DNA of 64,000 nt from Deltaproteobacteria bacterium. Lineage in GTDB: Bacteria > Desulfobacterota > Syntrophobacteria > BM002. The notes under the pieces were generated by a model. It did no database searches. It was given only the letters and a program-made list of their open reading frames with translations, and had not been told where the DNA came from. Shown in pieces: positions 7,941 to 61,284 of this stretch. Each line of letters begins with the position of its first letter. Positions within the stretch are counted from its first letter, which is position 1. A program made the translations under genes and the position numbers. The stretch spans positions 6,913-70,912 of the forward strand of contig JARRNM010000016.1 in the NCBI GenBank assembly GCA_037384945.1. The letters run 5' to 3'.

Positions 7941-8016
7941 CCCAGCTGGCAGCTGGCAGCAGACGGCTGGCAGTAAATGGAGTAGCTTTGCTGCCTGCGG
8001 CCAGCTGCCAGCTGTT
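7941..8016. repeat. Heptamer array (CAGCTGG family) followed by its reverse complement, giving a long imperfect hairpin between convergent genes
   Basis: Starts at the base after the clpB stop: CAGCTGG CAGCTGG CAGCAGA CGGCTGG CAG ... CTGCCTGCGGCCAGCTGCCAGCTG. Confidence 0.85.
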
Positions 8017-8023
8017 GATTTAC

Positions 8024-8269
8024 TCAGCGACTTTCTTTCCTGAGCTCTTCCACGGCGGTCTGATATAAATTGCGTAATTTATTCTCGTTGCTAACCATGG
8101 TACGGCTGATCTTTCCGAAGTGGTCCTTTAGAATTCCGCTGGCCTCATCCCAACTTCCATGTAGTTGCGTAGGGTCAATTTTTGCCTCCCGCAGTTTTTT
8201 CTTGAACAGATCGATCATCATCCGATCCTTCATCTCGCCCACGTCGGTGATCCCGTCATTTTTTTCCAT
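8024..8269 (-). CDS. Hypothetical small protein (81 aa)
   Basis: ORF only. Charged and helical-looking, with no motif I recognise. Confidence 0.4.
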   Translation of the reverse strand: MEKNDGITDVGEMKDRMMIDLFKKKLREAKIDPTQLHGSWDEASGILKDHFGKISRTMVSNENKLRNLYQTAVEELRKESR

Positions 8270-8601
8270 GGCAAACCCCCCCGGTCTGAGATTCCGCTAG
8301 AAGTGTAAGATTCCGCAGCCAGTTCCACGAGAAGTCCTAGGCCAGAATGTAAGGTATTGTTTCATTAGAAACTCTTGATTCAAGCGACACGTCATAGAAA
8401 GGGACTCATCTCAAGTATGTAATGTTACCTTATCCCACTAGGAGTGTGCAATAGTTTTGTGAATAGCTTAACAATTAGCATAATTAGATGGGCGATCTCA
8501 GATTACCTATCCACTGTCGGGATTTGTTTCGGCTTTTCTGGGATGGATCAAAGACAATGGACCACAAAGAAATATAATGCCTTTTTAAGGCTTGAATTAG
8601 G

Positions 8602-9264
8602 ATGGCCCATCCTCTAATCTGTTGCAACGAGGAGGAAATCGTCCTCATGCCGGAAAACAAGGGAGCTATTGATTTTCTTCGAGAGCACGGAGAGACTTCT
8701 CTAGTCAACCTGGGATGTGGTCTCATGGTCAACAGGATAGACAATCACCTTCGGCTCATGACCGCATTGCATCTTACTTATTACGTAGGCATAGACTGTC
8801 TTCCGGGGATTGTACAGGTTTCTCCCGATCTTTTCTTGGACCCTGACGGTATGACAAGGTTGCTAAGCGACTACTACCAGGGCGAACCTCGCCGGTTCTG
8901 GGCAAATGTTAGACTATTTCCTGAGACCTGGGTGGAGGAACTGAGAAATATTCATTGTGCTGTGGTGGTATGCCAAAGGGTGTATCCACACTGCCGCTGG
9001 GAAGAGGTTATCTTCTCCATGAGTCCGAAATTGGTGCTCCAAGAGGATCTTCATGGTTGCGAACGACAGCAACTTCGAGGGAAGAAGTACGTTCGAACCT
9101 GGGCAGAGAAAAAGTACTATGGCCTTAGACCCTTCAAACCTTGGCCGATTTTTCCAGGAGAATATAATCTAATACTTTGGCGCAGCCGCGATTTTGAAGT
9201 GGATGGGATTGTTGAAGGTAGGGGGAAAATACTTCGACGACTGCGCGAATGGGTGATGGGATAA
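8602..9264 (+). CDS. Hypothetical protein with a weak SAM-methyltransferase motif-I-like segment
   Basis: 220 aa. The VNLGCGL and YYVGIDC spacing resembles motif I and post-I of class I methyltransferases. The start is uncertain (8602 or 8647). Confidence 0.45.
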   Translation: MAHPLICCNEEEIVLMPENKGAIDFLREHGETSLVNLGCGLMVNRIDNHLRLMTALHLTYYVGIDCLPGIVQVSPDLFLDPDGMTRLLSDYYQGEPRRFWANVRLFPETWVEELRNIHCAVVVCQRVYPHCRWEEVIFSMSPKLVLQEDLHGCERQQLRGKKYVRTWAEKKYYGLRPFKPWPIFPGEYNLILWRSRDFEVDGIVEGRGKILRRLREWVMG

Positions 9265-9523
9265 CCAGTCAGCATGGGGCATAGAGCATGGAGCGTGGAG
9301 CATGGAGCCAGAGGTCGGAGGTCGGAAGTCAGAGGACAGACGACAGCAAGCAGCGTCGTTATCCGTTATTAGTTACTCGTTGCACGGATGATCTGTCCTT
9401 ATGAGTTGTCGTGAAGCCTTCTACGATTTCTACGGTTTCTACGATTTGAACGACTTCAATGGCTTGAACGACTTTAACGGTTTCTAAACATTTTAGGCAT
9501 TTTAGACACTTCAGGCAGTTGCC
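9265..9523. repeat. Spacer made entirely of drifting tandem repeats: about 21 heptamers, then 11 nonamers
   Basis: 9271-9417 parses as AGCATGG GGCATAG AGCATGG AGCGTGG AGCATGG AGCCAGA GGTCGGA GGTCGGA AGTCAGA GGACAGA CGACAGC AAGCAGC GTCGTTA TCCGTTA TTAGTTA CTCGTTG... 9418-9516 parses as CTTCTACGA TTTCTACGG TTTCTACGA TTTGAACGA CTTCAATGG CTTGAACGA CTTTAACGG TTTCTAAAC ATTTTAGGC ATTTTAGAC ACTTCAGGC. The array ends at the ATG of the next gene. Confidence 0.9.
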
Positions 9524-10342
9524 ATGACAAACTACTTTTTATCAATGAATTCTCTGGTGGTTCTGGAGAAAAATTTACCTAACCTGGCGCCGGTGGAGGC
9601 CCCAGAAGTTGCGAGTATGATCCGCGCTGCTCTGGGGGTCGTCATGCCACGAGGTATTACCAGAAAGCGTTACCAGAAAATTGCCGCTATGGCAAAGAAT
9701 TGGTTTCCCAATCTGGACGCCAAATATGACTATGCAGGAAAGACTAAACAAGCAGTGCTCTTTAAACGTATGCAAATACGCCACCCAAAAACCATTTTAT
9801 ATTCAAGGCCGCAAGTGTTACTGGATGTTGAGGGGAAGGGGCTGCCGCTGGACTATCCTTTTGTGCTCAAGGGAGATAATGGTGGTGGGGGCAGTACGGT
9901 TTTTCCTGTCTGCTGCTGGAAAGATTTGATAGCTGGACTCCACAGGCTGCCTGCAGAAGAACCTCTACTGATTCAGAACTGGGTTGACCATGGAGGTATG
10001 GATCTCAGGGTGGTGGTTATGGGTGCTAAAATGGTGAGCTATTTTCGCGTTGGTGGTGAGAACTTTTATAACAATGTGTGCCGGGGCGGACGCATGCAGC
10101 CGGAAATTTTCCCCGAGCTACAAGAACGCGGTATGGCTGCTGTGGCTAGATTTTGCCACCTCGCCCGGATTAATCTCGCCGGTTTCGATCTCATGTTTCC
10201 CGATGAAGGTCCGCCTGTATTTATCGAGATAAATTTCAATTTCGGCCGCAAAGGACTCGGCGGCACGCCAGGGTTCAGAAAACTGTTTAAGGAAGCAGTG
10301 GAGCTGTGGAAGGAAGGATTTGCCTACCCAACCTTGAGGTGA
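9524..10342 (+). CDS. ATP-grasp domain protein (RimK/glutathione-synthetase-like ligase)
   Basis: 272 aa. Contains FVLKGDNGGGGSTVF (glycine-rich ATP loop), DLRVVVMG and AGFDLMFPDEGPPVFIEINFNFG (typical ATP-grasp C-terminal Mg/ATP site). Confidence 0.7.
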   Translation: MTNYFLSMNSLVVLEKNLPNLAPVEAPEVASMIRAALGVVMPRGITRKRYQKIAAMAKNWFPNLDAKYDYAGKTKQAVLFKRMQIRHPKTILYSRPQVLLDVEGKGLPLDYPFVLKGDNGGGGSTVFPVCCWKDLIAGLHRLPAEEPLLIQNWVDHGGMDLRVVVMGAKMVSYFRVGGENFYNNVCRGGRMQPEIFPELQERGMAAVARFCHLARINLAGFDLMFPDEGPPVFIEINFNFGRKGLGGTPGFRKLFKEAVELWKEGFAYPTLR

Positions 10343-10438
10343 GATTAAATACTTGTTTTGGGATTTATGGTCCCACATCTCAGAACTCACAGCTCACATC
10401 CAGTCTTCAATTTGTTTTGGATTTCCGGCCGACCGCGG

Positions 10439-11543: not shown

Positions 11544-13208
11544 ATGAAGACGGAAAGCCAAAGTGATACCAACCGTCAAACCGCGATCCTCTCCGCTCTC
11601 GGCAACCCTGATTTCTACCCACATCCGGTTGGAACGATTCAGGTTGAAGAGACCCACATTTCAAGAGTCTTCCTGACCGGTGACTATGTCTACAAAATGA
11701 AAAAACCGGTGGATTTTGGCTTTTTGGACTATACAACTCTGGAAAAACGACACCATTTCTGCAAGCAGGAGGTCGTGCTCAATAACCGTCTAAGTGCAGA
11801 TGTATATCTAGGTGTGGTGTCCATTACCGAGGAGGCGGCAGGGTACGCCCTCAACGGTTTGGGTAAACCAGTGGAGTACGCGGTGAAAATGCGCCAACTT
11901 CCAAAAGAGAAAACGATGCTGCAACTTTTGCGACGGGGCGAATTGAGCCTGGACATGTTGGGGGATTTGGTCCAGATCCTGGTGCGGTTTTACGAAAAGA
12001 CCGACAAAGGGCCAGAGATTGACCACATGGGTTCCCGGGAGCTGATTTGGGTCAACATCGAAGAAGATTTCGTCCAGACCAGTCCTTTTGTTTCAACCAT
12101 CCTGGACAGGGAAAAATTTTCTGATTTGCACCTGCGGGTACGAACTTTTCTCAACTCCCAGGCGGAGATTTTTGACCGCCGGATAAAATCTGGATACATC
12201 CGGGACTGTCACGGTGATCTGCGCTTGGGCCACATATATTTTGCCGACTCTATATCCATTATCGACTGTATAGAGTTCAACGAAAGGTTTAGGTACGGTG
12301 ATTTGGCTTCTGACTTGGCTTTTCTGGGAATGGACCTAGACTATAATGGCTTTGCCCATATAGGACAAAAATTTTTCGCCGAGTATGCTCAGTCGGCGGA
12401 TGATCCCGAGATTTTCCTGATCCTTGATTTCTATAAGTGCTACAGGGCTCATGTACGCTGCAAAGTTGAGTGTCTGAGGTATGGGACAGGAGAACTTTCA
12501 GGACCAGAGGCGGCTTCAGTTAATGCGAGAGCGCAGAGCTATTTGGAGCTGGCCTGGAGGTATGCAGACACTTTTAGCCGTCAAACCATCTGGATCGTCT
12601 GCGGGCTGAGCGGCAGTGGGAAGAGTACTATAGCTGCAGATCTAGGACGGCTGATGAACCTGAAGTTTATTGGATCCGATGTCACCAGGAAAAGACTCTT
12701 TGGGCTTAGTCCCGAGCAGGAGGTGGTCAAACCCTTTGGTGAGTCGATTTACAGCCCAGCCGCCAGCGACAAGACCTACGAGCATTTGCTCCTTGAGGCA
12801 CGAAAAGAGATGTCCCGGGGCAGATCAGTTATTTTGGATGCCACTTTTGGCAGACACCGTTACAGGGTATTAGCTCGGAGGCTCGCCGAGGAAATGAAGG
12901 CAAATGTAATCTTCATAGAGTGCCGATGCGGACTCTCAGTGTTGCGCCAGAGGCTGACGGAGCGAAAAGAGCAAAAGTCAATATCAGATGCGCGGTTAGA
13001 ACATCTGGATGCTCAGAGCCAGGCATTTGAGCCCCTGGATGAATTGGGGGATGGCATCCATCTCCCCATCAACACCGAACAACCACTCCACCAGTGTGTA
13101 CACCAGATTTTGTCCAAGGGGTATGGGCTACGGAGTCAGCAAGGGGATGCCGCAAGGAAGGAAGCAGGCAACAGCCAGCAACTGTTTCAACCAGGCACTA
13201 AGAACTAA
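11544..13208 (+). CDS. Two-domain protein: aminoglycoside-phosphotransferase-like kinase fold plus a P-loop (AAA/adenylate-kinase-like) domain
   Basis: 554 aa. The N-terminal half has the APH-like catalytic segment CHGDLRLGHIY and DCIEFNERFRYGD. The C-terminal half has Walker A GLSGSGKST. Confidence 0.7.
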   Translation: MKTESQSDTNRQTAILSALGNPDFYPHPVGTIQVEETHISRVFLTGDYVYKMKKPVDFGFLDYTTLEKRHHFCKQEVVLNNRLSADVYLGVVSITEEAAGYALNGLGKPVEYAVKMRQLPKEKTMLQLLRRGELSLDMLGDLVQILVRFYEKTDKGPEIDHMGSRELIWVNIEEDFVQTSPFVSTILDREKFSDLHLRVRTFLNSQAEIFDRRIKSGYIRDCHGDLRLGHIYFADSISIIDCIEFNERFRYGDLASDLAFLGMDLDYNGFAHIGQKFFAEYAQSADDPEIFLILDFYKCYRAHVRCKVECLRYGTGELSGPEAASVNARAQSYLELAWRYADTFSRQTIWIVCGLSGSGKSTIAADLGRLMNLKFIGSDVTRKRLFGLSPEQEVVKPFGESIYSPAASDKTYEHLLLEARKEMSRGRSVILDATFGRHRYRVLARRLAEEMKANVIFIECRCGLSVLRQRLTERKEQKSISDARLEHLDAQSQAFEPLDELGDGIHLPINTEQPLHQCVHQILSKGYGLRSQQGDAARKEAGNSQQLFQPGTKN

Positions 13209-13495
13209 GCACTAGGCACCGTGGCAAGACAGGCAAAGCACGGAAGAGGCGAGACGGCACTTTCAGCTAGCAGCAGGCAGATAATACAGAAGTCGGAGAT
13301 CAGAGGTCAGACGACAGAGGACGGATGACAGATGACAGAAAGGAACTGATTTAGTCCAAGAGGAGCAGAATCTAGGATCACAGATTTTTATTTTCGAAAT
13401 TCGAAATTCGCATTTCGAAATGTGGACTCTGTGCTCTATGCTCCTTGCTCTATGCTTCCCAAATCCGCAATCCGAAATAATCCATCTCCATGTCT
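13209..13495. repeat. Single-phase array of about 41 drifting heptamers
   Basis: Parsed from the base after the stop codon: GCACTAG GCACCGT GGCAAGA CAGGCAA AGCACGG AAGAGGC GAGACGG ... TCGGAGA TCAGAGG TCAGACG ACAGAGG ACGGATG ACAGATG ACAGAAA ... TTTTCGA AATTCGA AATTCGC ATTTCGA ... GCTCTAT GCTCCTT GCTCTAT GCTTCCC AAATCCG CAATCCG. Confidence 0.9.
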
Positions 13496-13772: not shown

Positions 13773-13850
13773 TTTATTCCTCCATATTTGCTAGGATTTG
13801 CTTAAATATAATACCGGGATCACACTTCATCAAGAGCAGGTACTCTTGGT

Positions 13851-14030
13851 GCATGGAGCATTGAGTCAAACGAGACGGGCGAGACGGGAGGTCGGACGAG
13901 ACGAGGATATAGACGGGGAAGTCGGAACGGGGAACGTGGAATTATTTTCTGTGTTCAAAGCTAACGGTCTAAACCGGCTAACAGGCTAAGCTGCCGGCTA
14001 AATCTTCGCTACTGACTACCAGTTGCGTGT
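13851..14030. repeat. Short-period drifting repeats (7 nt, then about 9-10 nt) in a divergent spacer
   Basis: GCATGGA GCATTGA ... GAGACGG GCGAGAC GGGAGGT CGGACGA GACGAGG ... CGGGGAA GTCGGAA CGGGGAA CGTGGAA, then CTAACGGT CTAAACCGG CTAACAGG CTAAGCTGCCGG CTAAATC. Confidence 0.7.
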
Positions 14031-14066
14031 CCTTAAGAACCAGTGACTGGACGGGTTGAGTTTGCT

Positions 14067-14857
14067 ATGAAAATTGCAACCTGGAATGTGAACTCCATAA
14101 GGGTGAGGTTGCAAACGGTTTTGGACTGGATGACTCTGGAGCGGCCGGATGTTCTCTGCCTGCAGGAGATAAAGGTCACTAGTGAACTGTTTCCCGTCGA
14201 TTCTTTCGAGGCTCTAGGCTACCGGGTTGAGGCAAGTGGCCAAAAAACGCAAGTGGCCAAAAAACCTACAATGGGGTGGCCATAGTGAGCAAATATCACC
14301 TGAGTGAGGTGGAGAAAGAGCTGCCTGACTACGACGCCGAAAATCAGAAGAGAATAATCAGCGCAACCATAGGTGATGTGAGGGTAGTAAATGTCTATGT
14401 TCCCCATGGTGCGGCGGTTGGCTCAGCCAAATTTGCTTACAAACTGGGATTCATCAGGGAGCTACATAATTATCTGACAAAGCATCACAACCCCGCTGAA
14501 ATGCTAATTTTAACCGGGGATTTCAATGTGGCCCCGGAAGCCTGCGATGTTTACGATGTCCAAGAGATGGAAGGCGAAATCGGCTTTCATCCAGAGGAGC
14601 GCACCGCGCTGGCAGATTTGAAAGGTTGGGGTTTTGCTGATGTCTTCCGGCTACATCACCAGGAAGGTGGTCTATACAGTTGGTGGGACTATAGGGCTGG
14701 TGCCTTTCGCCGCAATATGGGCCTGAGGATCGACCACATCTGGGCTACGGAGCCACTTTCAGCACTTAGTTCAGAGAGCGGCATGGATAAAAGACAGCGT
14801 TCTTTGCCCAAGCCCTCAGACCACATTCCAGTCTGGGCCACCTTCGATCTCAGTTAG
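14067..14857 (+). pseudogene. xth: Exodeoxyribonuclease III disrupted by a 17-bp tandem duplication
   Basis: ORF 14043..14285 ([22 protein letters not shown]) and ORF 14276..14857 (..TGDFNVAP..RIDHIW..PSDHIPV) are the two halves of Xth. Removing one copy of GCAAGTGGCCAAAAAAC restores ..[18 protein letters not shown].. in a single 258-codon frame. Confidence 0.9.
14232..14265 (+). repeat. Perfect 17-bp direct tandem duplication inside xth
   Basis: GCAAGTGGCCAAAAAAC at 14232-14248 is repeated exactly at 14249-14265. Confidence 0.95.
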
Positions 14858-15249
14858 CATAGAGCATAGGGCATAGGGCAAAAAACAAGAAGTCAGAGAT
14901 CAGAGGTCAGAAGTCAGAGGTCGCAAATCAGAAAGACGGTAATTTCGGATTGTGAATTTAAAAAGGCATAGGGCCTGGAGCATGGCGTAAGGAGCCAGGA
15001 GCCAGAATTCAAGAGAAAAGGAATCAAGATTGACTTCATCTGAGCTGCCGCCTCTTTGAACCGCAGAATGTCGAACAAGGAATCTTGAATATCGAAGGGA
15101 TCACTTCATCATTCTGCGGTTCCTTGTTCTGCTGTTCGATATTCAGTACTTTGAAGCATCTGCCCTCTGACCTCCGACTTCTCAGCACCTTCGTGCCTAG
15201 TGCCTAGATGATACAGCTGCCAGTTGCGAGCTGTCAGTTGCTAGCTTTG
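14858..15249. repeat. Single-phase array of about 56 drifting heptamers filling a convergent spacer
   Basis: Parsed from the base after the xth stop: CATAGAG CATAGGG CATAGGG CAAAAAA CAAGAAG TCAGAGA TCAGAGG TCAGAAG TCAGAGG TCGCAAA TCAGAAA ... GGAGCCA GGAGCCA ... TCTGCCC TCTGACC TCCGACT TCTCAGC ... TGCCTAG TGCCTAG ... AGCTGCC AGTTGCG AGCTGTC AGTTGCT. TGCCTAG at 15194 is exactly 48x7 nt from 14858. Confidence 0.9.
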
Positions 15250-21556: not shown

Positions 21557-21718
21557 GGTCCGTGGTCGGTAGTCAGTTGTCCCTTGGGTGAAAAGCATAG
21601 TTTATGCAGTACAGGGGTGGTGCGGGCATAATGATCGCCAACCGCTTCCCGCCGGAATGTGGATCAAACAGTAATGAGCTTCAATTGCCGCGGACAGCGG
21701 ACCACTGACAACGGACTA
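21557..21718. repeat. Pair of inverted GTCCGT/GTCAGT-family heptamer arrays flanking about 100 nt
   Basis: Left arm GGTCCGTGGTCGGTAGTCAGTTGTCCC (21557-21583). Right arm CCGCGGACAGCGGACCACTGACAACGGAC (21688-21716). The same word family occurs at 39094-39390. Confidence 0.75.
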
Positions 21719-22660: not shown

Positions 22661-22975
22661 CCCCAATCCCCAATTCCCAATCTGCAATCAAAGAATATAG
22701 TAGCCAGAATCCAGCAAGCATAGAGCATAGAGCAAAGGGCATAGGGTTAAAAATTCTGATTTCGAAATTAGAAATTAAAAATCCGAAATCTGTCGTCTGT
22801 TGTCTGTCATCTGCCATCTCATTAGTATGCCCAATGACAGCGCAGGGTAATGGCCCAATGACGACGAAGCCAAGTGACCCATATCGCCCTATGCCTTGTA
22901 CCTTGCGGTTTTCGCCTTTCATCAATCCGCAATCTACAATTCCTCTGTCCAGCACCATACCTACCAATACCAGGA
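22661..22975. repeat. Single-phase array of 45 drifting heptamers in a divergent promoter region
   Basis: Base-by-base parse: CCCCAAT CCCCAAT TCCCAAT CTGCAAT CAAAGAA TATAGTA GCCAGAA TCCAGCA AGCATAG AGCATAG AGCAAAG GGCATAG GGTTAAA AATTCTG ATTTCGA AATTAGA AATTAAA AATCCGA AATCTGT CGTCTGT TGTCTGT CATCTGC CATCTCA ... TGCCTTG TACCTTG CGGTTTT CGCCTTT CATCAAT CCGCAAT CTACAAT ... Confidence 0.92.
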
Positions 22976-23879: not shown

Positions 23880-23993
23880 GGAACCATGGAATATTGGAAT
23901 TTTTAAGCGGCGGAGTGGAAAGCGTAAGGAGTGCAATAATTGGCCTAGTTCCTTTGGACCCAATGTTCCATCGTTCCATTTTTCCAATATTCC
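23880..23993. repeat. Structured repeat inside the qrcA-qrcB spacer
   Basis: GGAATATTGGAA (23888-23899) and its perfect complement TTCCAATATTCC (23982-23993). GGAACCATGG (23880-23889) pairs with CCATCGTTCC (23968-23977) with one mismatch. The partners occur in the same order, so they are not nested. Confidence 0.8.
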
Positions 23994-28497: not shown

Positions 28498-28591
28498 GCG
28501 GCCAGCTGGCAGGAGGCAGCTCGCAGCAAGGAGCAATGATTCTTCGAACAGGATATCCTTTCCTGCCAGCTGTCTGCTGCCCGCTGCCAGC
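28498..28591. repeat. CTGCCAG-family arrays in inverted orientation (long imperfect hairpin)
   Basis: GCGGCCAGCTGGCAGGAGGCAGCTCGCAGC (28498-28527) ... CCTGCCAGCTGTCTGCTGCCCGCTGCCAGC (28562-28591). Confidence 0.8.
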
Positions 28592-28657
28592 TAAAGGAGC
28601 GCACCTTCTCCTTCTTCTCAGGTTAAAAGCAGAATTTATGGGTTTAAGAGCGATCGA

Positions 28658-30300: not shown

Positions 30301-30574
30301 TTACCTTTAGTCATTTCGCCTTATTAAAATAGGGTAACCACAGAAGTCTATTAACTAAATAATAAATGAAAAATTACAAATGATAAATGAGGAATGTTGC
30401 CCCTTGATTAGGAGACGGTGGACCTGAACCGGGTGTTTAATGAACAAGAGCGAGACCTTAACTCCATGTTCCCTGACAGGGAGATGAGAAAATTCCTCAA
30501 GCAGGTTGATAAGAATCGGCGCAGTAACCAAAGGTTTCTCAAGGGAATGAAGAGAGACACACTCTGGGAGGAAG

Positions 30575-31249: not shown

Positions 31250-31488
31250 GAAGAAAGAACCACGAAGAACACGAAAAATACAAAAATACAATAGGTGTGG
31301 GATGTGGGATAGGTGATGTGAGATTCAACATCCCTCATTTCAGATCTCACATCTCATATCCAATTTTCCATCTGTTTCGGATTTAGGATTTATCTGCAGG
31401 GTCTGGATTCCAAATTCGGCCCTTTAAGCCTTGGTGCCTAGTGCATAGTGCCTAGTTAAGTCCAGTCTATCGCCTAGACGCGGGGAAG
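31250..31488. repeat. Spacer of 34 heptamers in one phase, running from stop+1 to start-1
   Basis: GAAGAAA GAACCAC GAAGAAC ACGAAAA ATACAAA AATACAA TAGGTGT GGGATGT GGGATAG GTGATGT GAGATTC AACATCC CTCATTT CAGATCT CACATCT CATATCC ... TTCGGAT TTAGGAT TTATCTG ... TGGTGCC TAGTGCA TAGTGCC TAGTTAA ... Confidence 0.9.
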
Positions 31489-32233: not shown

Positions 32234-33007
32234 ATGGCTGAGACCGGTAGAGAATTCGAAAGGTTGCTGGATTTGCTCACCCGACTCCGGGCTGAGGATG
32301 GCTGTCCCTGGGATCGCGAGCAGACTCCCGCTACTATCAAGCGCTACCTTCTGGAAGAGGTTTATGAAGTTGTAGATGCGGTGGATCATGAAACTCCAGA
32401 TCAGGTAGCTGAGGAACTCGGCGATCTGATTTTCATGGCCCTTTTTTTGGCACAGTTCTATGCCGAACAGGACCAGTTTCAGATGGCTGAGGTACTTCGC
32501 GGGGTTGGTAATAAGATGGTTCGTCGCCATCCCCATGTGTTCGGAGATCGTAAGGTCGATTCTGCACGGGAGGTCAAACTCAACTGGGAAGAGATTAAAC
32601 AGAAAGAAAAACCTCGCAAGTCCTTAAGTGCTCGTTTCAGTGACATACCCCGTGCCCTGCCGGCGCTAATGCGATCATACCGAACGCTTTCACGGCTGGC
32701 CCGTGTACTAAGACGTCCTCTGAGCCGGAACGTCCTTCTTCCTGAGATGCAAAGATCATTCTCAATGCTCCTGGAGCTGGAGAGCGCAGATAGTGATTCC
32801 TCTTTGACGGTCGTTCTGGGCAGACTTCTGCTCCTGCTGGTAGCTTTTACCCAACCGAGGGGAATACGTGCAGAGGAAGCACTCACAGAGGCTCTCGCAA
32901 GCTTCTTCCAGCGAGTTGACCAGGTGGAAAAGTATCTGGTTGACAAGAAAAAAGAGTGGAGCGAGCTTTCCGAGGAAGAGGAACGGACTCTCTGGGAAGA
33001 GATCTGA
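32234..33007 (+). CDS. mazG: Nucleoside triphosphate pyrophosphohydrolase MazG
   Basis: MAETGREFERLLDLLTRLRAEDGCPWDREQT..EEVYEVVDA..ELGDL. The ATG at 32234 was chosen because the track ORF starts further upstream, inside the previous gene. Confidence 0.88.
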   Translation: MAETGREFERLLDLLTRLRAEDGCPWDREQTPATIKRYLLEEVYEVVDAVDHETPDQVAEELGDLIFMALFLAQFYAEQDQFQMAEVLRGVGNKMVRRHPHVFGDRKVDSAREVKLNWEEIKQKEKPRKSLSARFSDIPRALPALMRSYRTLSRLARVLRRPLSRNVLLPEMQRSFSMLLELESADSDSSLTVVLGRLLLLLVAFTQPRGIRAEEALTEALASFFQRVDQVEKYLVDKKKEWSELSEEEERTLWEEI

Positions 33008-33189
33008 TCATATCTCATATCTCATATCTCATATCTCATTTCTCATTTCACATTTCGCATTTCTCAGTGGTCATCTATCATCGATAATCCAGAACAAAAA
33101 TTATACGTCCATTTCATATGAATGAAAAATGTTAGATGAGCGATGGGAAATGATAAATTATCTGCCAGCTGCTTCCTGCCAGCTGAAAA
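33008..33189. repeat. 26 heptamers in one phase from the mazG stop+1 to the SRP RNA 3' end
   Basis: TCATATC x4, TCATTTC x2, ACATTTC GCATTTC TCAGTGG TCATCTA TCATCGA ... GAATGAA AAATGTT AGATGAG CGATGGG AAATGAT AAATTAT CTGCCAG CTGCTTC CTGCCAG. Confidence 0.9.
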
Positions 33190-34204: not shown

Positions 34205-34298
34205 AAGAGGGTAAGGGCGACAAAGGCGGAAAAAGCGAGAAAAGCAAGCAATGTCCGTCTTTTTCCTTTCTCGCCTTGGCCCTTTCTCGCTTTAACCC
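34205..34298. repeat. Heptamer words and their complements (AAGGGCG/GAGAAAG family)
   Basis: GGGTAAG GGCGACA AAGGCGG AAAAAGC GAGAAAA GCAAGCA ... CCTTTCT CGCCTTG GCCCTTT CTCGCTT. Confidence 0.65.
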
Positions 34299-34734
34299 TG
34301 TCCACTTAGCACACTGCACCTCGCTGCCAATGCACAGAGCTGACCACGGACAATTGATTCCCGGATTGGCGTAGGACGTACCAAATTCGCTCCTGGTCGT
34401 CAAGGATAAATGGTTCTTGTCGTTAAATGGTGAAAAAAGTCAAGAAACTAGTGGTAACCTCCCAGGGTTGCAGCCACTTACAGTTTGTGTTAGAAATCCA
34501 AAACGATTCGTAATGACGTTCGACTGGATAATCACCAAGGGCGCAAGGAAGACGAAAGAATATGCGAGATTTTAGGTTTGAGATTGCAGATTGACACCCC
34601 TAGCCACTACGATGTCTCGGAATCTGCAATCAACAATCTAAAATCACCTTCCTTGGTGATCTCTATGGTTGAATCTTTCGTCACCTTAACTTCTTCTGAC
34701 CTGGATGAACTGAAAAAAGATAGAGAAAAGGGCT

Positions 34735-39093: not shown

Positions 39094-39390
39094 TACTGTC
39101 TGTAGTCCGTAGTCAGTGGTCCGTGGCTGGCAGGCATAGATCTCACCGTCGAGACAGCCAGGCTCGTTACTCATAACGCTATAGTCCCTTCTAACATTCT
39201 CGAGATTTTGCCTGTTCAGCCTTTGGCTGCTGACATCGGGCAGAATCGAGCTATTTATGCCTGGAAACCTGGAATGTTCATAGCGAAATCTGTCGCGGGA
39301 GAATAAGGGTAGCATCTTGGCAATTTTGAGGCAATAATTAGTAGCATTGGTGATACCACGGACAACGGACTACTGACAACGGACCAAAGG
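39094..39390. repeat. About 300-bp unit bounded by inverted GTCCGT/GTCAGT heptamer arrays
   Basis: Left arm TACTGTCTGTAGTCCGTAGTCAGTGGTCCGTGG (39094-39126). Right arm CCACGGACAACGGACTACTGACAACGGACCAAAGG (39356-39390). It fills the ybeY-pdxJ spacer. Confidence 0.75.
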
Positions 39391-42096: not shown

Positions 42097-42243
42097 CAGC
42101 AAGTAGATCATTTCTCATTTCTCATTTCTCATTTCGCATTTCTCATTGATCATTTATCATTGTCAACTCAACACAAGAGTCATCCGACCAAAGTTACATT
42201 AATGACAAATGTCAAATGAGAAATAGGAAATGAAAAATGAAAA
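42097..42243. repeat. 21 heptamers in one phase from the nnr stop+1 into the first codons of tsaE; the two halves are inverted complements
   Basis: Base-by-base parse: CAGCAAG TAGATCA TTTCTCA x3 TTTCGCA TTTCTCA TTGATCA TTTATCA TTGTCAA CTCAACA CAAGAGT CATCCGA CCAAAGT TACATTA ATGACAA ATGTCAA ATGAGAA ATAGGAA ATGAAAA ATGAAAA. Unit 20 supplies the tsaE ATG at 42230. Confidence 0.92.
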
Positions 42244-42739
42244 ACCGTTACGCACGTGGGAAAACCGCACCGAAAGCCCTGAAGAGACTCAAAGGCTCGC
42301 CGAACAACTTGGGCGGCTTCTGCAACCCGGGGATCTAGTTGCTTTGGTAGGGGAATTAGGCAGCGGAAAAACCCTTTTCTCTCAGGGACTGGCTCGGGGC
42401 TTAGGGGTTCCGAAGAATTTCTACATCACCAGCCCAACCTTTGTCATCATAAACGAGTATCCTGGTAGAGTCCCCTTTTATCATCTGGATTTATACCGAG
42501 TCTCCAAAGCCGAGTTTTCAGAACTAGGGCTAGAAGAGATCTTTTTCGCCCAAGGGGTAGTAGCAATTGAATGGGCTGAGCGGCTAGGCAAAGATCTGCC
42601 GGTGGAGAGACTGGAAGTTCGCTTGACCTTCCTGGGGGAGGTGGAACGAAACATTGCCTTCTTTGCATTTGGAGACAAATTTAAAAAGAGACTGGCCACA
42701 CTTGTCGACTTGCATAAAAACGCCGGAGAGAAATCCTAA
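42230..42739 (+). CDS. tsaE: tRNA t6A biosynthesis ATPase TsaE (YjeE)
   Basis: 169 aa. Contains LVGELGSGKTLFSQGLARGLGV, SPTF and HLDLYR. Confidence 0.88.
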   Translation: MKNEKPLRTWENRTESPEETQRLAEQLGRLLQPGDLVALVGELGSGKTLFSQGLARGLGVPKNFYITSPTFVIINEYPGRVPFYHLDLYRVSKAEFSELGLEEIFFAQGVVAIEWAERLGKDLPVERLEVRLTFLGEVERNIAFFAFGDKFKKRLATLVDLHKNAGEKS

Positions 42740-47223: not shown

Positions 47224-47250
47224 ACTATTATAGGACCGCCTCTCGTTCTC

Positions 47251-47410
47251 GGCATAGGGCATGGAGCATAGGGCAAAAATTTCGAAATTCGAAATTATCC
47301 TATGTGTCATCTGTCATCCATCCTTTGTCGTCTGTCCTCTAATCCCCGTCTCTTGCCACTGTGCCTAGCGCTCAGTTCCTAGTGCCATGGCCCAACGGCT
47401 GCCAGCTGAA
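47251..47410. repeat. About 23 heptamers in one phase ending at the stop codon of the convergent kinase gene
   Basis: GGCATAG GGCATGG AGCATAG GGCAAAA ATTTCGA AATTCGA AATTATC CTATGTG TCATCTG TCATCCA TCCTTTG TCGTCTG TCCTCTA ... GCCTAGC GCTCAGT TCCTAGT GCCATGG CCCAACG GCTGCCA GCTGAAT. Confidence 0.88.
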
Positions 47411-50069: not shown

Positions 50070-51140
50070 TTGAAAGTACTGGGAATAGAGAGTTCTTGCG
50101 ATGAAACCGCTGCAGCTGTGGTGGAAGATGGGCGGCGCATTCTCTCCAGTGTAGTTTCTTCGCAAGTCACAATTCATCGCCCCTATGGTGGTGTGGTTCC
50201 AGAACTGGCCTCCCGGCAGCATGTCAAGGCAATCATCCCGGTGATTTCACAAGCCCTGCAACGAGCAGATCTGGAGATGTCCTCGGTAGATGGTATCGCC
50301 GTTACCCAGGGGCCGGGATTGGTAGGATCACTCCTGGTAGGCATTGGGGTGGCCAAGGGGTTGGCCTATGCCACCGGTAAACCCCTGGTTGCCGTGAACC
50401 ACCTTGAAGGTCACATTCAGGCCGCCTTTATGAATGAGTCGCAGCCTTCCTTTCCTGTTGTTGCCCTGGTAGTTTCCGGGGGACACACCAACCTTTATCT
50501 CGTTGAGGATTATGGCAGAATTAATTTGCTGGGGCGGACCAGGGATGATGCTGCGGGGGAGGCCTTTGACAAAGTGGCAAAATTTCTGGACCTTGGCTAT
50601 CCTGGTGGGGTGATCATTGATGGTCTGGCACGAAAGGGGAATCCGCAAGCAATTTCCTTTCCGCGAGCCTATTTGGAGAAAGACTCCCTGGATTTCAGTT
50701 TTAGCGGGATCAAAACAGCAGTGGTCAATTTTGTCCGCAAATATGTGGGTACCAGCCCGACAGGTGCAGCTGTTAAACCTGGAGTCAGTGGGATCTCGGC
50801 AAAGGAGCTCCCCCTGCCGATTGCCGATCTGGTGGCCAGTTTTCAAGAGGCGGTGGTCGAGGTTTTGGTGGAAAAGACTTGCACTGCAGCGAAAAAATTC
50901 AAGGTACGCCAGGTGGTGGTAGCCGGCGGAGTGGCAGCCAACAGCCGTCTTCGCCGGCGATTACTGGAAGAGGCGGCTAGGTTTGGCATTGCCTTGAATT
51001 TACCCGAGCCGGAGCTTTGCACTGACAACGCCGCCATGATAGCTGCTGCCGGCTTCTATAAACTCAAGGAGAGGACTGCCCTCTGGGACCTCAATTTCGA
51101 CGCAATTTCTCGCTGGCCGGATAAACCAGCAGGCAGCTAG
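50070..51140 (+). CDS. tsaD: tRNA N6-adenosine threonylcarbamoyltransferase TsaD
   Basis: 356 aa with a TTG start. Contains VLGIESSCDETAAAVV, HLEGHI and VVSGGHT. Confidence 0.93.
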   Translation: MKVLGIESSCDETAAAVVEDGRRILSSVVSSQVTIHRPYGGVVPELASRQHVKAIIPVISQALQRADLEMSSVDGIAVTQGPGLVGSLLVGIGVAKGLAYATGKPLVAVNHLEGHIQAAFMNESQPSFPVVALVVSGGHTNLYLVEDYGRINLLGRTRDDAAGEAFDKVAKFLDLGYPGGVIIDGLARKGNPQAISFPRAYLEKDSLDFSFSGIKTAVVNFVRKYVGTSPTGAAVKPGVSGISAKELPLPIADLVASFQEAVVEVLVEKTCTAAKKFKVRQVVVAGGVAANSRLRRRLLEEAARFGIALNLPEPELCTDNAAMIAAAGFYKLKERTALWDLNFDAISRWPDKPAGS

Positions 51141-51259
51141 CAGCCGGCAGCCGGCAGGTTCATTCCTTTCTAATTGTGCATTTGTCATTATACATTATCT
51201 CGACTTCGTCTCGTCCGGTATGACGTTTCGGATGGAAAGAAATAAGGAGCGCGGTAGCC

Positions 51260-52234: not shown

Positions 52235-52353
52235 ACAAATCGGGTCGCAAGGACTTAATAATCCCCGGAGTTATGGTTGAGGGAGCAGGTATCAGGTTCC
52301 CCCGCTGCCGCTTCGCTGCAGGCGGGATCTTCGACAGGTGTCAGGAACAAGCT

Positions 52354-52470
52354 TGCAGCTGACAGCGGGCAGCAGTCAGCTCAGGTGATGCAGGGTGGAT
52401 TCTGTATTGGGCATATCTTTTCCCTGCCAGTTGCCCGCTGCTAGCTGCCATTTTCTCTATGCCCCATGCC
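52354..52470. repeat. CTGCCAG/GCAGCTG-family inverted arrays plus CTATGCC words
   Basis: GCAGCTGACAGCGGGCAGCAGTCAGCTC (52354-52382) ... CCTGCCAGTTGCCCGCTGCTAGCTGCC (52423-52449), then CTCTATGCCCCATGCC up to the stop of the 62-aa ORF. Confidence 0.75.
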
Positions 52471-54697: not shown

Positions 54698-54766
54698 AGG
54701 TTTCAGTGTTCAGGTTTCAGCTCCCATTCTCTTTTTGCTGAAACCTGACACCTGACACCTGACACC
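54698..54766. repeat. CTGACAC heptamer array paired with its complement (hairpin directly after a stop codon)
   Basis: AGGTTTCAGTGTTCAGGTTTCAGC (54698-54721), a loop, then GCTGAAACCTGACACCTGACACCTGACACC (54737-54766). Confidence 0.85.
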
Positions 54767-59567: not shown

Positions 59568-59570
59568 CTC

Positions 59571-60470: not shown

Positions 60471-60643
60471 AACATCTTCCTGGAAATCCGAAAAATATCG
60501 GATAGGATAAATATAGTGCCGGCCCGCTGAACTTACAACTCCTCGATTTGGCACAATTTGTTAGATAACGACTATTCGGGTTGTCAACAAGGGGAGATGA
60601 GACAAAGTGCAACAAGACAAGGGGAAATATTTTTCAGAGACTC

Positions 60644-60672
60644 TTGACGGAGAGAAATGGAGTTCTTAACAT
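60644..60672 (+). promoter_or_regulatory. Candidate sigma-70 promoter for the 53-aa ORF
   Basis: TTGACG (60644-60649), a 17-nt spacer, then TAACAT (60667-60672). Confidence 0.4.
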
Positions 60673-60760
60673 TTCGCCCAACATGGAATCATTTTGATTC
60701 AAAACCTTTTTAACCCTAGGATAAGAACTCGAGACAAAACACGAAAAGAGGAGGTTAGTC

Positions 60761-60922
60761 ATGGCCGAGGCAACGAAAAGTTCAATGGTTTACGTCTACG
60801 ACAAAGAGGGGAATGCTTACATCTGTAACATCGAAGATTTAAAAGATGCGTCAACTGTAAGCGATGAAGAGAAAGCTGATTGCACTGATTTAGATCGGGG
60901 CGGATTTAGCAGAAACGAGTAA
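60761..60922 (+). CDS. Unannotated small acidic protein (53 aa)
   Basis: Below the ORF-track cutoff. AAGAGGAGG lies 7 nt upstream. The sequence is MAEATKSSMVYVYDKEGNAYICNIEDLKDASTVSDEEKADCTDLDRGGFSRNE*. A clean terminator follows. Confidence 0.6.
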   Translation: MAEATKSSMVYVYDKEGNAYICNIEDLKDASTVSDEEKADCTDLDRGGFSRNE

Positions 60923-60970
60923 GAATATGAGGCTTTTAATGTGATAGACTAGTGCGCAGTCTTAATAAGA

Positions 60971-60999
60971 AAAGCGAGTTAATTTAACTCGCTTTTTTT
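60971..60999 (+). terminator. Rho-independent terminator
   Basis: AAAGCGAGTTaatttAACTCGCTTTTTTT. Confidence 0.8.
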
Positions 61000-61039
61000 G
61001 TCGAGTTAATTATGGTGATACCAAGAGAATTAATTACAG

Positions 61040-61284
61040 AAATCTTCAATCCACATTCTACAATCTGAAAGTAAAGAATTCAGTAATCAACGGTCAGCGG
61101 TAAGTAGCAAAAGGTAGATGGTTATCGAGCATCCAAAATCTCAATTCGGCAAAGTCTCGATTGTTCAATCGTAAATCCCCAATCTTCTCCATGCCTTATG
61201 CCCTGTGCCCTATGCCATCCCAAATCCGCAATCCGAATTCCACACTCCGAAATCTAACCGCTGCCTACTGCCAGCTGCCTGCTG
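61040..61284. repeat. Heptamer arrays extending into the last 10 codons of the VWA gene
   Basis: In phase from 61194: CCTTATG CCCTGTG CCCTATG CCATCCC AAATCCG CAATCCG AATTCCA CACTCCG AAATCTA ACCGCTG CCTACTG CCAGCTG CCTGCTG. The VWA stop is at 61254-61256. Confidence 0.8.

Follow-up and report, generated by a model that had tools for sequence, protein, structure and literature searches.

Sequence-defined heptad-repeat modules in the intergenic DNA of a Syntrophobacterales-like clade

The stretch of DNA analysed here (the window, 64,000 nucleotides) is chromosomal and belongs to an uncultured, sulfate-reducer-type, Syntrophobacterales-like bacterium of the phylum Thermodesulfobacteriota. Its relatives are metagenome-assembled genomes (MAGs) labelled Syntrophobacterales, Syntrophobacteria or Deltaproteobacteria, in line with the initial annotation, according to which the gene content is not cyanobacterial. 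That annotation also listed 19 sites at which DNA between genes consists of tandem 7-nt arrays. TRF returned about 45 rows with period 7 in the window. Pooled over the listed sites, the identity at lag 7 is 0.47 (0.40 at lag 14 and 0.35 at lag 21), compared with 0.245 at lag 7 in the rest of the window. The signal is real: a sliding 35-nt test detected 24 period-7 regions in the window and 0–2 in shuffles; the other periods from 4 to 12 yielded 0–4 regions. In individual tests against dinucleotide shuffles, p was 0.002 for 16 of the 19 sites and 0.016 for the 25-nt site 51141-51165. Overall, 17 of the 19 sites are significant. The other two have different periods. A hairpin at 23880..23993 has period 8 (identity 0.46 at lag 8 and 0.32 at lag 7) and sits in an insertion of ~190 nt that is missing from the related loci L007 and L008, and the repeat at 34205..34298 has a period of ~9 (16 according to TRF). 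The site 9265-9523 is heptameric at 9266..9385, and 9419-9517 has period 9. Period-7 sites at 10374-10401, 30358-30399 and 34568-34645 were absent from the list.

Each array is a mosaic of separate blocks, which are usually made of 3–5 tandem heptamers and seldom of up to 9–11. Blocks fall into about 11 word families, in which core positions are invariant, denoted A (GCATAGG), B (GAGGTCA), C (GATGACA), D (TTCGAAA), E (AATCCGA), F (CAGCTGG), G (CTAGGCA), H (GAGATGT), I (CATTTCT), J (GTCCGTA) and K (CAGGTGT); upper case denotes the word as given, and lower case its complement. In family A, per-position conservation is G.99, C.99, A.98, T.85, A.71, G.97 and G.49, and in family F, each position of CAGC is conserved at.93 or more, the remaining three being variable. 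Block number drops steeply beyond five units: for 3, 4, 5 and 6 units, the clade gave counts of 118, 56, 30 and 8, and metagenome loci gave 100, 82, 55 and 8. The same words do recur at distant sites and on both strands, as initially noted. The proposal that the word drifts gradually while phase is kept holds within blocks but not across them: neighbouring blocks match at 1.92 of 7 positions in phase versus 1.79 in other rotations, and the in-phase rotation is the best for 11 of 59 pairs (p=0.21). Since phase is lost across blocks, selection on a 7-nt helical phase, which had been suggested, is without support. Discrete word modules under sequence constraint fit the data better than a single array that drifts continuously.

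Modules are combined in recurrent orders. A-D (10 times), a-E, E-h and F-G-B are found at non-orthologous sites and across genomes, as is the composite (G e) A D b g f. Pairs in which a block is followed by its own complement are very frequent and have the G-rich arm first; G outnumbers C in the 5' arm of 17 out of 22 pairs (p=0.017). Polarity is also marked past genes, where the first block 3' of a stop codon is upper rather than lower case in a ratio of 20:0 for A, 11:1 for F and 11:0 for G.

Array contents in the window are as follows, the strand being given where one is assigned. An F...f pair, (CAGCTGG)n and (CCAGCTG)n separated by a loop of 9–22 nt, is located at 7943..8014, 3 nt past the clpB stop codon (RNA fold z=-5.0); L015 has an orthologous pair past its clpB. 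Two convergent spacers host F...f pairs, one at 28504..28592 (z=-3.6), past a canonical terminator at 28452-28478, and one at 52353..52470 (z=-1.6), which is followed by an a-like tail. The tsaD gene ends within five F units at 51123..51160 (+), which provide its final codons and its stop codon (CAGCTAG). J...j pairs are found at 21559..21717, where arms GTCCGTG and CGGACAA enclose ~100 nt next to the lysR stop codon, and at 39098..39384, where ~230 nt are enclosed. The interior of the latter is unrelated to those of other J...j pairs, which therefore do not qualify as MITEs with a conserved core. At 33006..33186, where a gene stop codon lies on one side and the SRP RNA 3' end on the other, nine I units (TCATATC/TCATTTC) are followed by a complementary i arm and an f block (z=-2.4). 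An I...i pair with eight I units occupies the yjeF-tsaE spacer (42107..42246; z=-6.6), and its right arm holds the ribosome-binding site and the ATG (42230) of tsaE. Smaller features include four h units (CACATCT) at 10374..10401 in a convergent spacer of 96 nt, six i units (AAATGAT) at 30358..30399 in a divergent spacer, the pair GATTTTAGGTTTGAGATTGCAGATT / AATCTGCAATCAACAATCTAAAATC at 34568..34645, and a K...k pair (GGTTTCA / CTGACAC) adjoining a stop codon at 54698..54766, which is conserved no more than partially in the strain behind L037.

Longer strings are composites. The array F G F B(C) D a E at 13160..13479 (+) overlaps with its first blocks the last ~48 nt of an AAA_33 kinase ORF. 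Its reverse-complement counterpart, A D c/b ... g f, occupies a convergent spacer at 47250..47410 (+) and is also present in L093, L114 and L116. The xth-gidB spacer (14856..15246) features A B A, a non-repeat centre and b g f. Between the divergent lysR and cytochrome c3 genes, at 22663..22940 (+), a CCCCAAT block is followed by A D c g and an E-like block, and the 107-aa ORF called over this string is probably spurious. The string H h e g (31293..31457, +) occupies a whole co-directional spacer. In the string. a E f (61050..61288, +), the f block codes for the last ~10 codons of a 408-aa minus-strand ORF. The string at 9266..9385 (+) begins 2 nt past a stop codon, consists of five A (GCATGGA), six B (GTCAGAG) and four TTATTCG units, and precedes the period-9 arrays at 9419-9517. 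It has no local partner arm (fold z=-0.1, likewise for 9266-9335). Weaker mixed arrays, namely GCATGGA, a GAGACGGG-type array of period 9, GGGGAAC and a GGCTAAC-type array of period 8, map to the divergent spacer upstream of xth (13846..14030, +; lag-7 identity 0.38, p=0.002).

Arrays had been assigned to nearly all intergenic spacers. About half of them (19/39) host a block of at least 4 units in the window, namely 6/6 convergent, 10/26 co-directional and 3/7 divergent spacers, and ~10% of non-coding bases are covered at the strict threshold. A further count of block-bearing spacers gave 18/25 convergent, 25/95 co-directional and 6/21 divergent. Thirty blocks lie 10 nt or less from a stop codon, compared with eight for start codons. 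Coding sequence had been described as free of arrays, and nearly all blocks are indeed non-coding; in the window and loci L005-L017, 2 of 101 blocks of at least 4 units lie inside ORFs of at least 120 aa, which make up 74% of the sequence.

The arrays extend beyond the contig. Period-7 regions number 0.5–7 per 10 kb in contigs of the window species and in 13 related MAG loci, which include chromosome-level records (CP070689 and others), and are absent from 14 more distant loci. Blocks of at least 4 units number 101 in 245 kb of the clade versus 0 in 184 kb of the outgroup. Independent JGI and NCBI assemblies yielded near-identical sequence (99.7–99.9%), and the arrays are therefore not an assembly artefact; together with the shuffles and the empty outgroup, this refutes an artefact of assembly or binning, or chance, as their origin. 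The A..D composite was detected in 44 metagenome contigs, corresponding to 35 distinct loci, all of which carry blocks of the shared word families and have a GC content of 0.45–0.54, except L107 (0.61). Shared families span genomes with a YidC identity of only 70%. They also reach phages. A Mu-like phage contig (L059) carries an A..a pair 3' of the portal gene, and GC-0.6 viral contigs carry A blocks and (GTTCAAN)5..(NTTGAAC)5 pairs, at about one group per 1–1.5 kb along the contig.

Units are gained and lost, and modules are exchanged. Contigs that are 99.8% identical over 21.4 kb show just two indels, one of which is a 14-nt (2-unit) polymorphism at 15175, inside the 14856..15246 array, and orthologous arrays differ in unit number, so that gain and loss of whole units is evident. 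L007 and L008 keep the outer modules (A; g f) of the xth-gidB array, but the inner pair has been exchanged, being either B..b or K..k. Block A after xth is kept in at least six genomes. The 61050..61288 array is wholly replaced in L036, where flanks are 96% identical. Near-identical long copies were not found within the 64-kb window (the best match is 85% over 54 nt), so recent copy-and-paste is not supported.

For several pairs, folding is far stronger than in shuffles (z from -3.5 to -6.6), and the modules could be selected as RNA stem-loops past stop codons, acting as U-tract-less, often bidirectional terminators or as barriers to 3' exonucleases. The enrichment in convergent spacers, the proximity to stop codons and the reiteration of pairs along phage contigs fit this role, as does the lack of enrichment of canonical intrinsic terminators in the window (20 observed vs 20.3 expected, 10 vs 21.4 and 22 vs 22.1); moreover, tandem-repeat arms would render a stem tolerant to indels. 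However, stems lack a downstream U tract, many blocks have no partner arm, as in the 9266-9335 string and the common A-D-b order, a plain hairpin does not require conserved words, and the 28504..28592 array already has a canonical terminator ahead of it. Arms match their own partner (0.80) no better than same-family arms at other loci (0.79; p=0.14), and the sense strand shows no excess of G.U over A.C (7:7 and 11:10). Base pairing thus does not seem to be the conserved property of the arms, and we regard selected stem-loops as unlikely. Arms conserved as family members rather than as pairing partners, and the missing strand-specific G.U bias, would be expected of double-stranded DNA arrays that bind a protein to the benefit of the host, each heptad being one register of an oligomerising protein and inverted pairs allowing looping or symmetric binding. 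The omega repressor of pSM19035, a ribbon-helix-helix protein, reads 7-bp heptad arrays, either direct or inverted. Invariant core positions beside freely varying ones in each unit, the limit of ~5 units per block and the blocks kept at orthologous sites also favour such binding, and the Geobacter sites have been read likewise (PMC2700814). This explanation is nonetheless doubtful, as at least 11 word families would require many cognate proteins, blocks are scarce in divergent (promoter) spacers and most frequent past stop codons, turnover between strains is fast, and phage structural-gene contigs are an odd location for a host regulon.

Plain microsatellite dynamics, in which a replisome with a lineage-specific proneness to 7-nt slips would seed and enlarge arrays wherever selection permits, without sequence-specific constraint, dispersal or function, may account for the 14-nt polymorphism, the variable unit number, the arrays extending into ORF ends, and a possible proto-repeat, CTAGATCGATT, found in L008 at the position of the GAGATGT array of L007. 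Restriction to non-coding DNA would follow, because a 7-nt step in a gene is a frameshift. This origin is improbable, since the same ~11 families and invariant positions recur across genomes, phage contigs and Geobacter, block orders are recurrent, inverted pairs are polar, and blocks end abruptly at 5 units instead of forming a long tail of lengths.

The arrays resemble the STRR repeats of cyanobacteria in being real, non-random, non-coding and lineage-wide, in a host that is not cyanobacterial. STRR repeats, initially presented as the only comparable case, are not alone. TAACTGA repeats occur in Beggiatoaceae, Cyanobacteria and Bacteroidetes (PMC4679880), and (GGGANTN)n repeats in Xanthomonas (PMC4692102). 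Mrazek (2007), as summarised in PMC4679880, noted a general excess of heptanucleotide repeats and put forward a polymerase-contact idea. The "class 3 sites" of Geobacter metallireducens are inverted pairs of five heptamers (PMC2700814, supplement S9), for which Aklujkar et al. proposed "global regulators" of the IHF/HU type (PMC2700814). Clade loci totalling 487 kb contain their words ATTCTGA/CTCCTGA 23 times and the outgroup not once, and the minus-left/plus-right geometry is shared in several loci. REP elements are palindromic, whereas single heptamer blocks are not.

We favour, with a probability of about 0.4, a REP/BIME-like family of dispersed, sequence-defined extragenic heptad modules, the copy number of which is driven by slippage. 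Blocks kept at orthologous positions also fit a host function, and strongly folding pairs at terminator-like positions leave room for a role in RNA. With 11 or more word families, either many readers or a single one of loose specificity would be required; no transposase, RAYT or other candidate for such a reader was identified in the contigs and loci examined. Similar repeats are known in a few other bacteria, and a grammar-like, clade-wide version, present also on phage contigs, has not been described. In the REP/BIME-like family, the identity of modules would be kept by whatever copies or reads them, possibly exchange or gene conversion between spacers, or a putative heptad-reading or transposition protein, while replication slippage would alter unit number in 7-nt steps. 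Modules would build up where DNA is least constrained, past stop codons and between convergent genes, and the long mismatched hairpin potential would be a consequence of the inverted arrangement and not itself conserved.

Tandem Repeats Finder returned approximately 45 period-7 rows in the window. When the 19 sites described as heptamer arrays in the initial annotation were pooled, base identity was 0.47 at lag 7, 0.40 at lag 14 and 0.35 at lag 21; in the remaining window, lag-7 identity was 0.245, and the sole visible signal was the period-3 of coding DNA. A sliding 35-nt test revealed 24 period-7 regions vs 0–2 in shuffles, with 0–4 regions at other periods from 4 to 12. Tested individually against dinucleotide shuffles, 16 of the sites were significant at p = 0.002 and the 25-nt site 51141-51165 at p = 0.016. 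The period-7 signal of the window thus withstands the shuffle control, and tandem short-unit repeats are commoner than chance, as is typical of long simple sequence repeats with units of 5–11 nt. The observation is genuine, with strong statistical support, although two of the descriptive claims attached to it were overstated.

Period 7 holds for 17 of the 19 sites. The exceptions are 34205-34298, which has a period of approximately 9 and fails the period-7 test, and 23880-23993, a period-8 hairpin located within an insertion of approximately 190 nt; two related loci (L007 and L008) lack this insertion and have a 21-nt spacer instead. A period-9 stretch (9419-9517) is also found within the site 9265-9523. 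Period-9 arrays of similar style include TTCTACGAT and CATTTTAGG in 9419-9517 and, as reverse complement, CGTAGAAGT at approximately 270-320 of L036, a contig of a close strain; Geobacter metallireducens has paired 9-mer arrays too, referred to as class 2. Three arrays had been overlooked (10374-10401, 30358-30399 and 34568-34645). The statement that nearly all spacers are built from heptamers is too strong, as blocks (runs of tandem heptamers of one word family) of at least four units occur in 19 of the 39 window spacers, and arrays cover about 10% of non-coding bases at a strict threshold. In contrast, the claim that coding sequence is free of arrays is borne out: only 2 of the 101 blocks of at least four units detected in the window and 13 related loci lie inside ORFs of at least 120 aa, which account for 74% of the DNA.

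The window carries ordinary chromosomal genes (clpB, yidC, mnmE, rnpA, gidB, xth, leuA, tsaD/E and pdxJ), along with those for a molybdopterin oxidoreductase with NrfD, cytochrome c3 and SRP RNA. Independent JGI and NCBI assemblies contain sequences 99.7–99.9% identical to the window, and ENA contigs match it at 96–99%. YidC identity to the window is 82–85% in five related loci (L005-L009) and 70–73% in eight others (L010-L017). These 13 loci are from MAGs labelled Deltaproteobacteria, Syntrophobacterales or Syntrophobacteria, four of them chromosome-level records, namely CP070689, CP070692, CP070735 and CP070843. The next YidC relatives (Desulfarculaceae, Desulfocarbo, Nitrospinota and others) reach at most 43% identity. 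In agreement with the non-cyanobacterial gene content noted earlier, the closest genomes are Syntrophobacterales/Deltaproteobacteria MAGs. Period-7 regions occur in all 13 clade loci, at 0.5–7 per 10 kb, and in none of 14 more distant outgroup loci; similarly, 101 blocks of at least four units were counted in 245 kb of clade DNA vs 0 in 184 kb of outgroup DNA. Consequently, the arrays are a lineage trait. They are neither an assembly artefact nor confined to the window contig, two possibilities raised earlier, since the 13 clade loci and the independent assemblies carry arrays or the same sequence. A search of a literature library retrieved no paper on such Syntrophobacterales repeats, and within that library only the Geobacter genome paper tied heptamer repeats to Syntrophobacterales or Desulfobacterota.

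When the sequence is written in rows of seven, arrays appear as mosaics of discrete blocks. Neighbouring units within a block differ by 0–2 bases, while the words of adjacent blocks are unrelated: in-phase similarity between adjacent blocks is 1.92 of 7 vs 1.79 in other rotations, and the in-phase rotation is the best one in 11 of 59 block pairs (8.4 expected, p = 0.21). The gradual drift with kept phase that had been described therefore holds within blocks only, and continuous drift across blocks is rejected. For the same reason, selection on helical phase (21 nt corresponding to two turns) receives no support, as phase is lost from one block to the next. Blocks are capped near five units, those of 3, 4, 5 and 6 units numbering 118, 56, 30 and 8 in clade loci, and 100, 82, 55 and 8 in metagenome loci.

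The words group into approximately 11 families: A (GCATAGG), B (GAGGTCA), C (GATGACA), D (TTCGAAA), E (AATCCGA), F (CAGCTGG), G (CTAGGCA), H (GAGATGT), I (CATTTCT), J (GTCCGTA) and K (CAGGTGT); lower-case letters denote complements. Only D and F are near-palindromic. Within a family, some positions hardly vary whereas others are free. For instance, the consensus bases of family A have frequencies of.99 (G),.99 (C),.98 (A),.85 (T),.71 (A),.97 (G) and.49 (G), and in family F the bases CAGC are each at or above.93 and are followed by three variable positions. Such fixed-core words are reminiscent of the (GGGANTN)n pattern of Xanthomonas (PMC4692102).

Block order, as well as words, is repeated across genomes and at sites that are not orthologous. 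A adjoins D ten times, and a-E, E-h and F-G-B are other recurring adjacencies. The composite (G e) A D b g f is found at 47250-47410, as reverse complement at 13160-13479, and in five further loci (L086, L093, L095, L114 and L116). The claim of a vocabulary shared by distant sites on both strands is confirmed. Scanning metagenomes for the A..D composite yielded 44 contigs representing 35 distinct loci, several of which align to the window or its relatives at 70–90% identity. All have a GC content of 0.45–0.54 except L107 (0.61), and all feature the same word families. In the most frequent motif, a block precedes its complement (Ff, Hh, Jj, Kk, Bb, Gg and Ii), an arrangement that generates long interrupted hairpins. 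Pairs are polar, the 5' arm having G>C in 17 of 22 (p = 0.017). The first block after a stop codon is also oriented, with upper- to lower-case ratios of 20:0 for A, 11:1 for F, 11:0 for G and 5:0 for J, in a count that includes metagenome loci chosen for carrying A..D.

In the unbiased set formed by the window and L005-L017, blocks of at least four units are present in 18 of 25 convergent, 25 of 95 co-directional and 6 of 21 divergent spacers. Within co-directional spacers, 30 blocks lie at most 10 nt from the upstream stop codon and 8 at most 10 nt from the downstream start codon. Three ORFs end within arrays and take their final codons and stop codon from them. These ORFs encode an AAA_33 kinase-like protein (13160-13208), TsaD (51124-51140) and a 408-aa VWA-like protein (61254-61288); in L036, which is 96% identical, the array at the latter site differs, and so does the C-terminus. 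The ribosome-binding site and ATG (42230) of tsaE are inside the right arm (42198-42246) of the strongest hairpin (z = -6.6), the folding of which could block initiation of tsaE translation. The bacterial large SRP RNA gene (33201-33461, minus strand, 148 bits) adjoins the array pair 33006-33186 at its 3' side. ORFs of 77–110 aa cross arrays on the minus strand at 22644-22967 (107 aa), 23670-24002 and 39082-39315, and one array-crossing ORF (104 aa, no Pfam match) is a called gene in the JGI annotation. Because the repeat words are stop-free, these are probably spurious calls. In practical terms, arrays give rise to probably spurious ORF calls, such as the 107-aa one, change the C-termini of proteins, and are likely to fragment short-read assemblies of clade MAGs.

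Four array regions fold far better than shuffles, namely 7938-8020 (z = -5.0), 42100-42248 (z = -6.6), 28495-28595 (z = -3.6) and 13380-13460 (z = -3.5); other array regions do not. Over 60 kb scanned, terminator-like sites were at or below shuffle expectation, and the sole match within arrays was a 5-bp stem in an F..f pair (8002-8014). Array stems lack T runs; having no U tract next to a GC-rich stem, arrays are not intrinsic (Rho-independent) terminators. More generally, canonical terminators and promoters are neither enriched nor coincident with arrays. By eye, the only clear canonical terminators, both apparently bidirectional, are 28452-28478, located between a gene and an array, and 60970-61000, with stems AAAAACCCCGGG...CCCGGGGTTTTT and AAAAGCGAGTTAAT..AACTCGCTTTTTTT, respectively. 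Nor do arrays belong to a known RNA family, as Rfam at gathering thresholds matched SRP RNA alone in the window, which has no tRNAs. Two tests for selection on pairing gave negative results. Mismatches of G.U and A.C type were equally frequent on the sense strand in 36 pairs (7:7 in +/+ spacers, 11:10 in -/- spacers), and in 29 family-labelled pairs arm-to-arm complementarity was 0.80 vs 0.79 for same-family arms of other loci (Wilcoxon p = 0.14). The word and its orientation are conserved, not the base pair, and these results weaken an RNA-structure function for the arrays. The equal complementarity of arms from other loci also gives no sign that pairs originated by recent inverted duplication.

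Arrays vary among strains in steps of units and of modules. Over 21.4 kb, only two indels separate the window from contigs of its own species, which are 99.8% identical to it; one of these indels, of 14 nt or two units, is inside the b block at 15175. In L036 (96% flanking identity), the whole array at 60.9-61.28 kb is swapped for different blocks, and in L037, another close-strain contig, only the stop-proximal units at 54.7 kb are common to the window. Orthologous spacers of L005-L008 gave no BLAST alignment with the window, but manual comparison of modules showed that outer ones are conserved. The F..f pair 3' of clpB has a common loop sequence but different unit numbers in the window and L015. 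Between xth and gidB, the outer modules, A next to the stop of xth and g f next to that of gidB, are retained in the window as well as in L007 and L008, while the inner pair is B..b with an insert of 150 nt, B..b alone, or K..k. In at least six genomes, xth is followed by an A block. The indels and orthologue comparisons indicate copy-number change in unit steps, module swapping and long persistence of some modules; whole-unit change, which the initial annotation had proposed to look for in orthologous spacers, is seen both at 15175 and in the clpB pair.

Other sequence features were noted outside the heptamer blocks. The non-repeat centre of the xth-gidB spacer (15046-15150) contains three short inverted segments in the same, non-nested order (AACCGCAGAATG/CATTCTGCGGTT, CGAACAAGGAA/TTCCTTGTTC and TTGAATATCGAA/TTCGATATTCA); the insert is absent in L007 and L008. 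A perfect 17-nt tandem duplication (GCAAGTGGCCAAAAAAC x2) at 14232-14265, found in the window only and absent in the window-species contigs L001-L003, splits the xth (Exo_endo_phos) ORF into 14043..14285 and 14276..14857; xth is intact as a 257-aa gene call in L001 and L003. At 56001, in a non-array spacer, AAAATTCGCTGGCAAACACAAC constitutes a 22-nt indel present in L036-L038 and absent in the window. A second, unrelated hairpin family (GTCATTCTGAGCC...CTCAGAATGAC) is represented by inverted copies 6.6 kb apart (43034-43286 and 49855-49961), with a 14-nt indel polymorphism among strains at 43120. Apart from this family, 16064-16120 and 43319-43375 form a direct repeat of 57 nt with 75% identity.

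The initial annotation regarded the short tandemly repeated repetitive (STRR) heptamers of heterocystous cyanobacteria, reportedly described by Mazel et al. in 1990, as the only comparable case. The STRR1-3 words are CCCCAGT, TTGGTCA and CAACAGT. Like the arrays, STRRs are intergenic tandem heptanucleotides with several word families per genome, but they belong to a different phylum, the host here not being a heterocystous cyanobacterium. Comparable cases are in fact more numerous, as heptamer repeats are also known in Xanthomonas, Beggiatoaceae/Bacteroidetes and G. metallireducens. In a search of 487 kb of clade loci for three tandem units with at most two mismatches, the STRR1-3 words, TAACTGA, GGGAATC and GGACCGG had no matches and GGGGATT a single one, in L012; identity with these known heptamer words is thus rejected. 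STRR is cited as three heptanucleotides of Calothrix PCC 7601 in PMC4692102, and an excess of heptanucleotide and other 5–11 nt simple sequence repeats is attributed to Mrazek 2007 in the summary provided by PMC4679880. Cyanobacterial heptamer arrays are sometimes long and perfect, e.g., 26 units (PMC4692102), in contrast to the mosaics and inverted pairs described here, in which blocks are capped near five units. TAACTGA direct repeats occur in marine Beggiatoaceae, some Cyanobacteria and Bacteroidetes, and S1, Csp or CsrA is suspected to bind them (MacGregor 2015, PMC4679880). They resemble the arrays in forming short intergenic sets (2–6 copies) with a patchy distribution suggesting transfer; however, they feature a single word, mostly as direct repeats just upstream of start codons, whereas the blocks adjoin stop codons (30 vs 8) and form inverted pairs. 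The (GGGANTN)n repeats of Xanthomonas and GGGGA(T/C)T repeats of Nostoc (Rehm et al. 2015, PMC4692102) are likewise heterogeneous intergenic heptamers with a conserved core and variable positions, some in inverted pairs, and vary widely in length and sequence among close relatives, but represent one G-rich family able to form G-quadruplexes, in arrays of up to 26 units.

The REP/REPIN/BIME elements of gamma-proteobacteria (Bertels and Rainey 2011, PMC3116915) are similar in organization: extragenic modules of approximately 35 nt, inverted doublets able to form hairpins, mosaic clusters, and a family consensus kept across copies despite strain-variable content. REP/REPIN units are 20–40 nt imperfect palindromes with a highly conserved core, a 16-mer in REPs, which are tied to a RAYT gene. 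The module described here consists instead of tandem heptads, and no RAYT (Y1 transposase) gene was found among the annotated window genes. REPIN arms also show compensatory changes, which the arms here do not (0.80 vs 0.79, p = 0.14). The arrays fall outside the definition of REPs: their unit is not palindromic, the annotated window genes include no RAYT, and compensatory change between arms was not seen. Neither are they MITEs: J..j arms are conserved, but three copies enclose unrelated sequences of 100–230 nt. The filled/empty comparison of 23808-24011 with L007 and L008 revealed no target-site duplication.

Viral contigs scanned for three A units gave 39 matches. L059, which encodes a Mu-type portal, a terminase domain and a virion structural protein, carries an A..a pair directly 3' of the portal gene. 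L062 (with a head-decoration protein match), L069 and L045, which are IMG/VR viral contigs with a GC content of approximately 0.6, feature A blocks plus (GTTCAAN)5 ... (NTTGAAC)5 pairs that recur about once per 1–1.5 kb; in these GC-0.6 contigs, block length peaks sharply at exactly five units. GTTCAAN/NTTGAAC pairs are often nested within GCATGGA/TCCATGC arms in these three contigs and in L044, likewise an IMG/VR contig with a GC content of approximately 0.6.

The closest catalogued counterpart is found in G. metallireducens, which belongs to the same phylum as the window organism but to a different class. Its "class 3 predicted global regulator binding sites" comprise eight pairs, Gmet_I301-308 (Aklujkar et al. 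2009, PMC2700814, Additional file 9). Each site consists of four to five tandem heptamers (ATTCTGA/CTCCTGA/CTTCTGA) drifting from unit to unit, and pairs are intergenic, on opposite strands, 70–110 bp apart, one of the pairs lying between proB and proA; the sites are read as IHF/HU sites, by prediction only (PMC2700814). MTYCTGA heptamers (three units, at most two mismatches) had 23 matches in 487 kb of window, clade and metagenome loci and 0 in the outgroup. The window has one (14900, minus strand), most arrays using other words. The minus-left/plus-right geometry of class 3 is reproduced in two clade loci, L012 (4857(-)/4906(+)) and L017 (5553(-)/5602(+)), and in the metagenome locus L080 (657(-)/724(+)). 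Both systems thus share 4–5 drifting heptamers, an intergenic location and inverted pairs at variable distance, with the purine-rich arm first on the plus strand in class 3 and the G-rich arm first in 17 of 22 pairs here. They differ in scale: a 4-Mb Geobacter genome has only 8 pairs, and each class uses a single word family, while the clade reaches approximately 4 blocks of at least four units per 10 kb, draws on 11 or more families and repeats its multi-block orders.

Of the readings considered, dispersed, sequence-defined heptad modules of REP/BIME type fit the data best, a tentative assignment to which we give a probability of roughly 0.4. Modules of approximately 35 nt would be extragenic and sequence-defined, arranged in inverted doublets and mosaics with a preference for the 3' flanks of genes. 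Their family consensus would be kept across genomes while content varies among strains, and each module would be a run of tandem heptads altered in unit number by slippage. Slippage by itself, as in a simple microsatellite, is a distinctly improbable explanation, hard to reconcile with the conserved vocabulary, fixed cores, size cap, polarity and syntax. That the arrays act as stem-loops at RNA 3' ends is unlikely, since neither the mismatch counts nor the arm complementarity points to selection on pairing. The arrays might instead be binding sites of a host protein, as predicted for the Geobacter sites; heptad-reading ribbon-helix-helix repressors offer a precedent, but we consider this explanation unlikely as well. 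It is possible, if doubtful, that the heptad modules form a previously unrecognised system of extragenic repeats, governed by a grammar of its own and dependent for its propagation or reading on a dedicated protein able to measure DNA or RNA in steps of 7 nt. The grammar would comprise approximately 11 fixed-core families, a five-unit (35 nt) cap, pairs with the G-rich arm first and recurring orders.

Heptamer repeats outside cyanobacteria are already known, and one word family with the same paired geometry is catalogued in G. metallireducens. What appears to be new is the scale, the multi-family vocabulary with syntax, the size cap and the polarity, clade-wide in an uncultured Syntrophobacteria-like lineage, as well as the fact that phage contigs carry A-word blocks and paired heptamer blocks of a similar kind. 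The link to class 3 is the most important in practice: G. metallireducens can be grown in culture and manipulated genetically, which makes pull-downs, deletions and 3'-end mapping feasible there. To our knowledge, heptanucleotide repeats are the most over-represented longer microsatellite class in many bacteria, and we know of no mechanism or function established for STRR, TAACTGA or Xanthomonas repeats. The clade provides an unusually rich, structured case with testable features, namely fixed-core families, size cap, pair polarity, block orders and rapid module swapping. A dedicated heptad-measuring protein, if real, would make the arrays a new counterpart of REP/RAYT or of heptad-reading ribbon-helix-helix repressors, and would provide a lead on why heptamers dominate long bacterial microsatellites.
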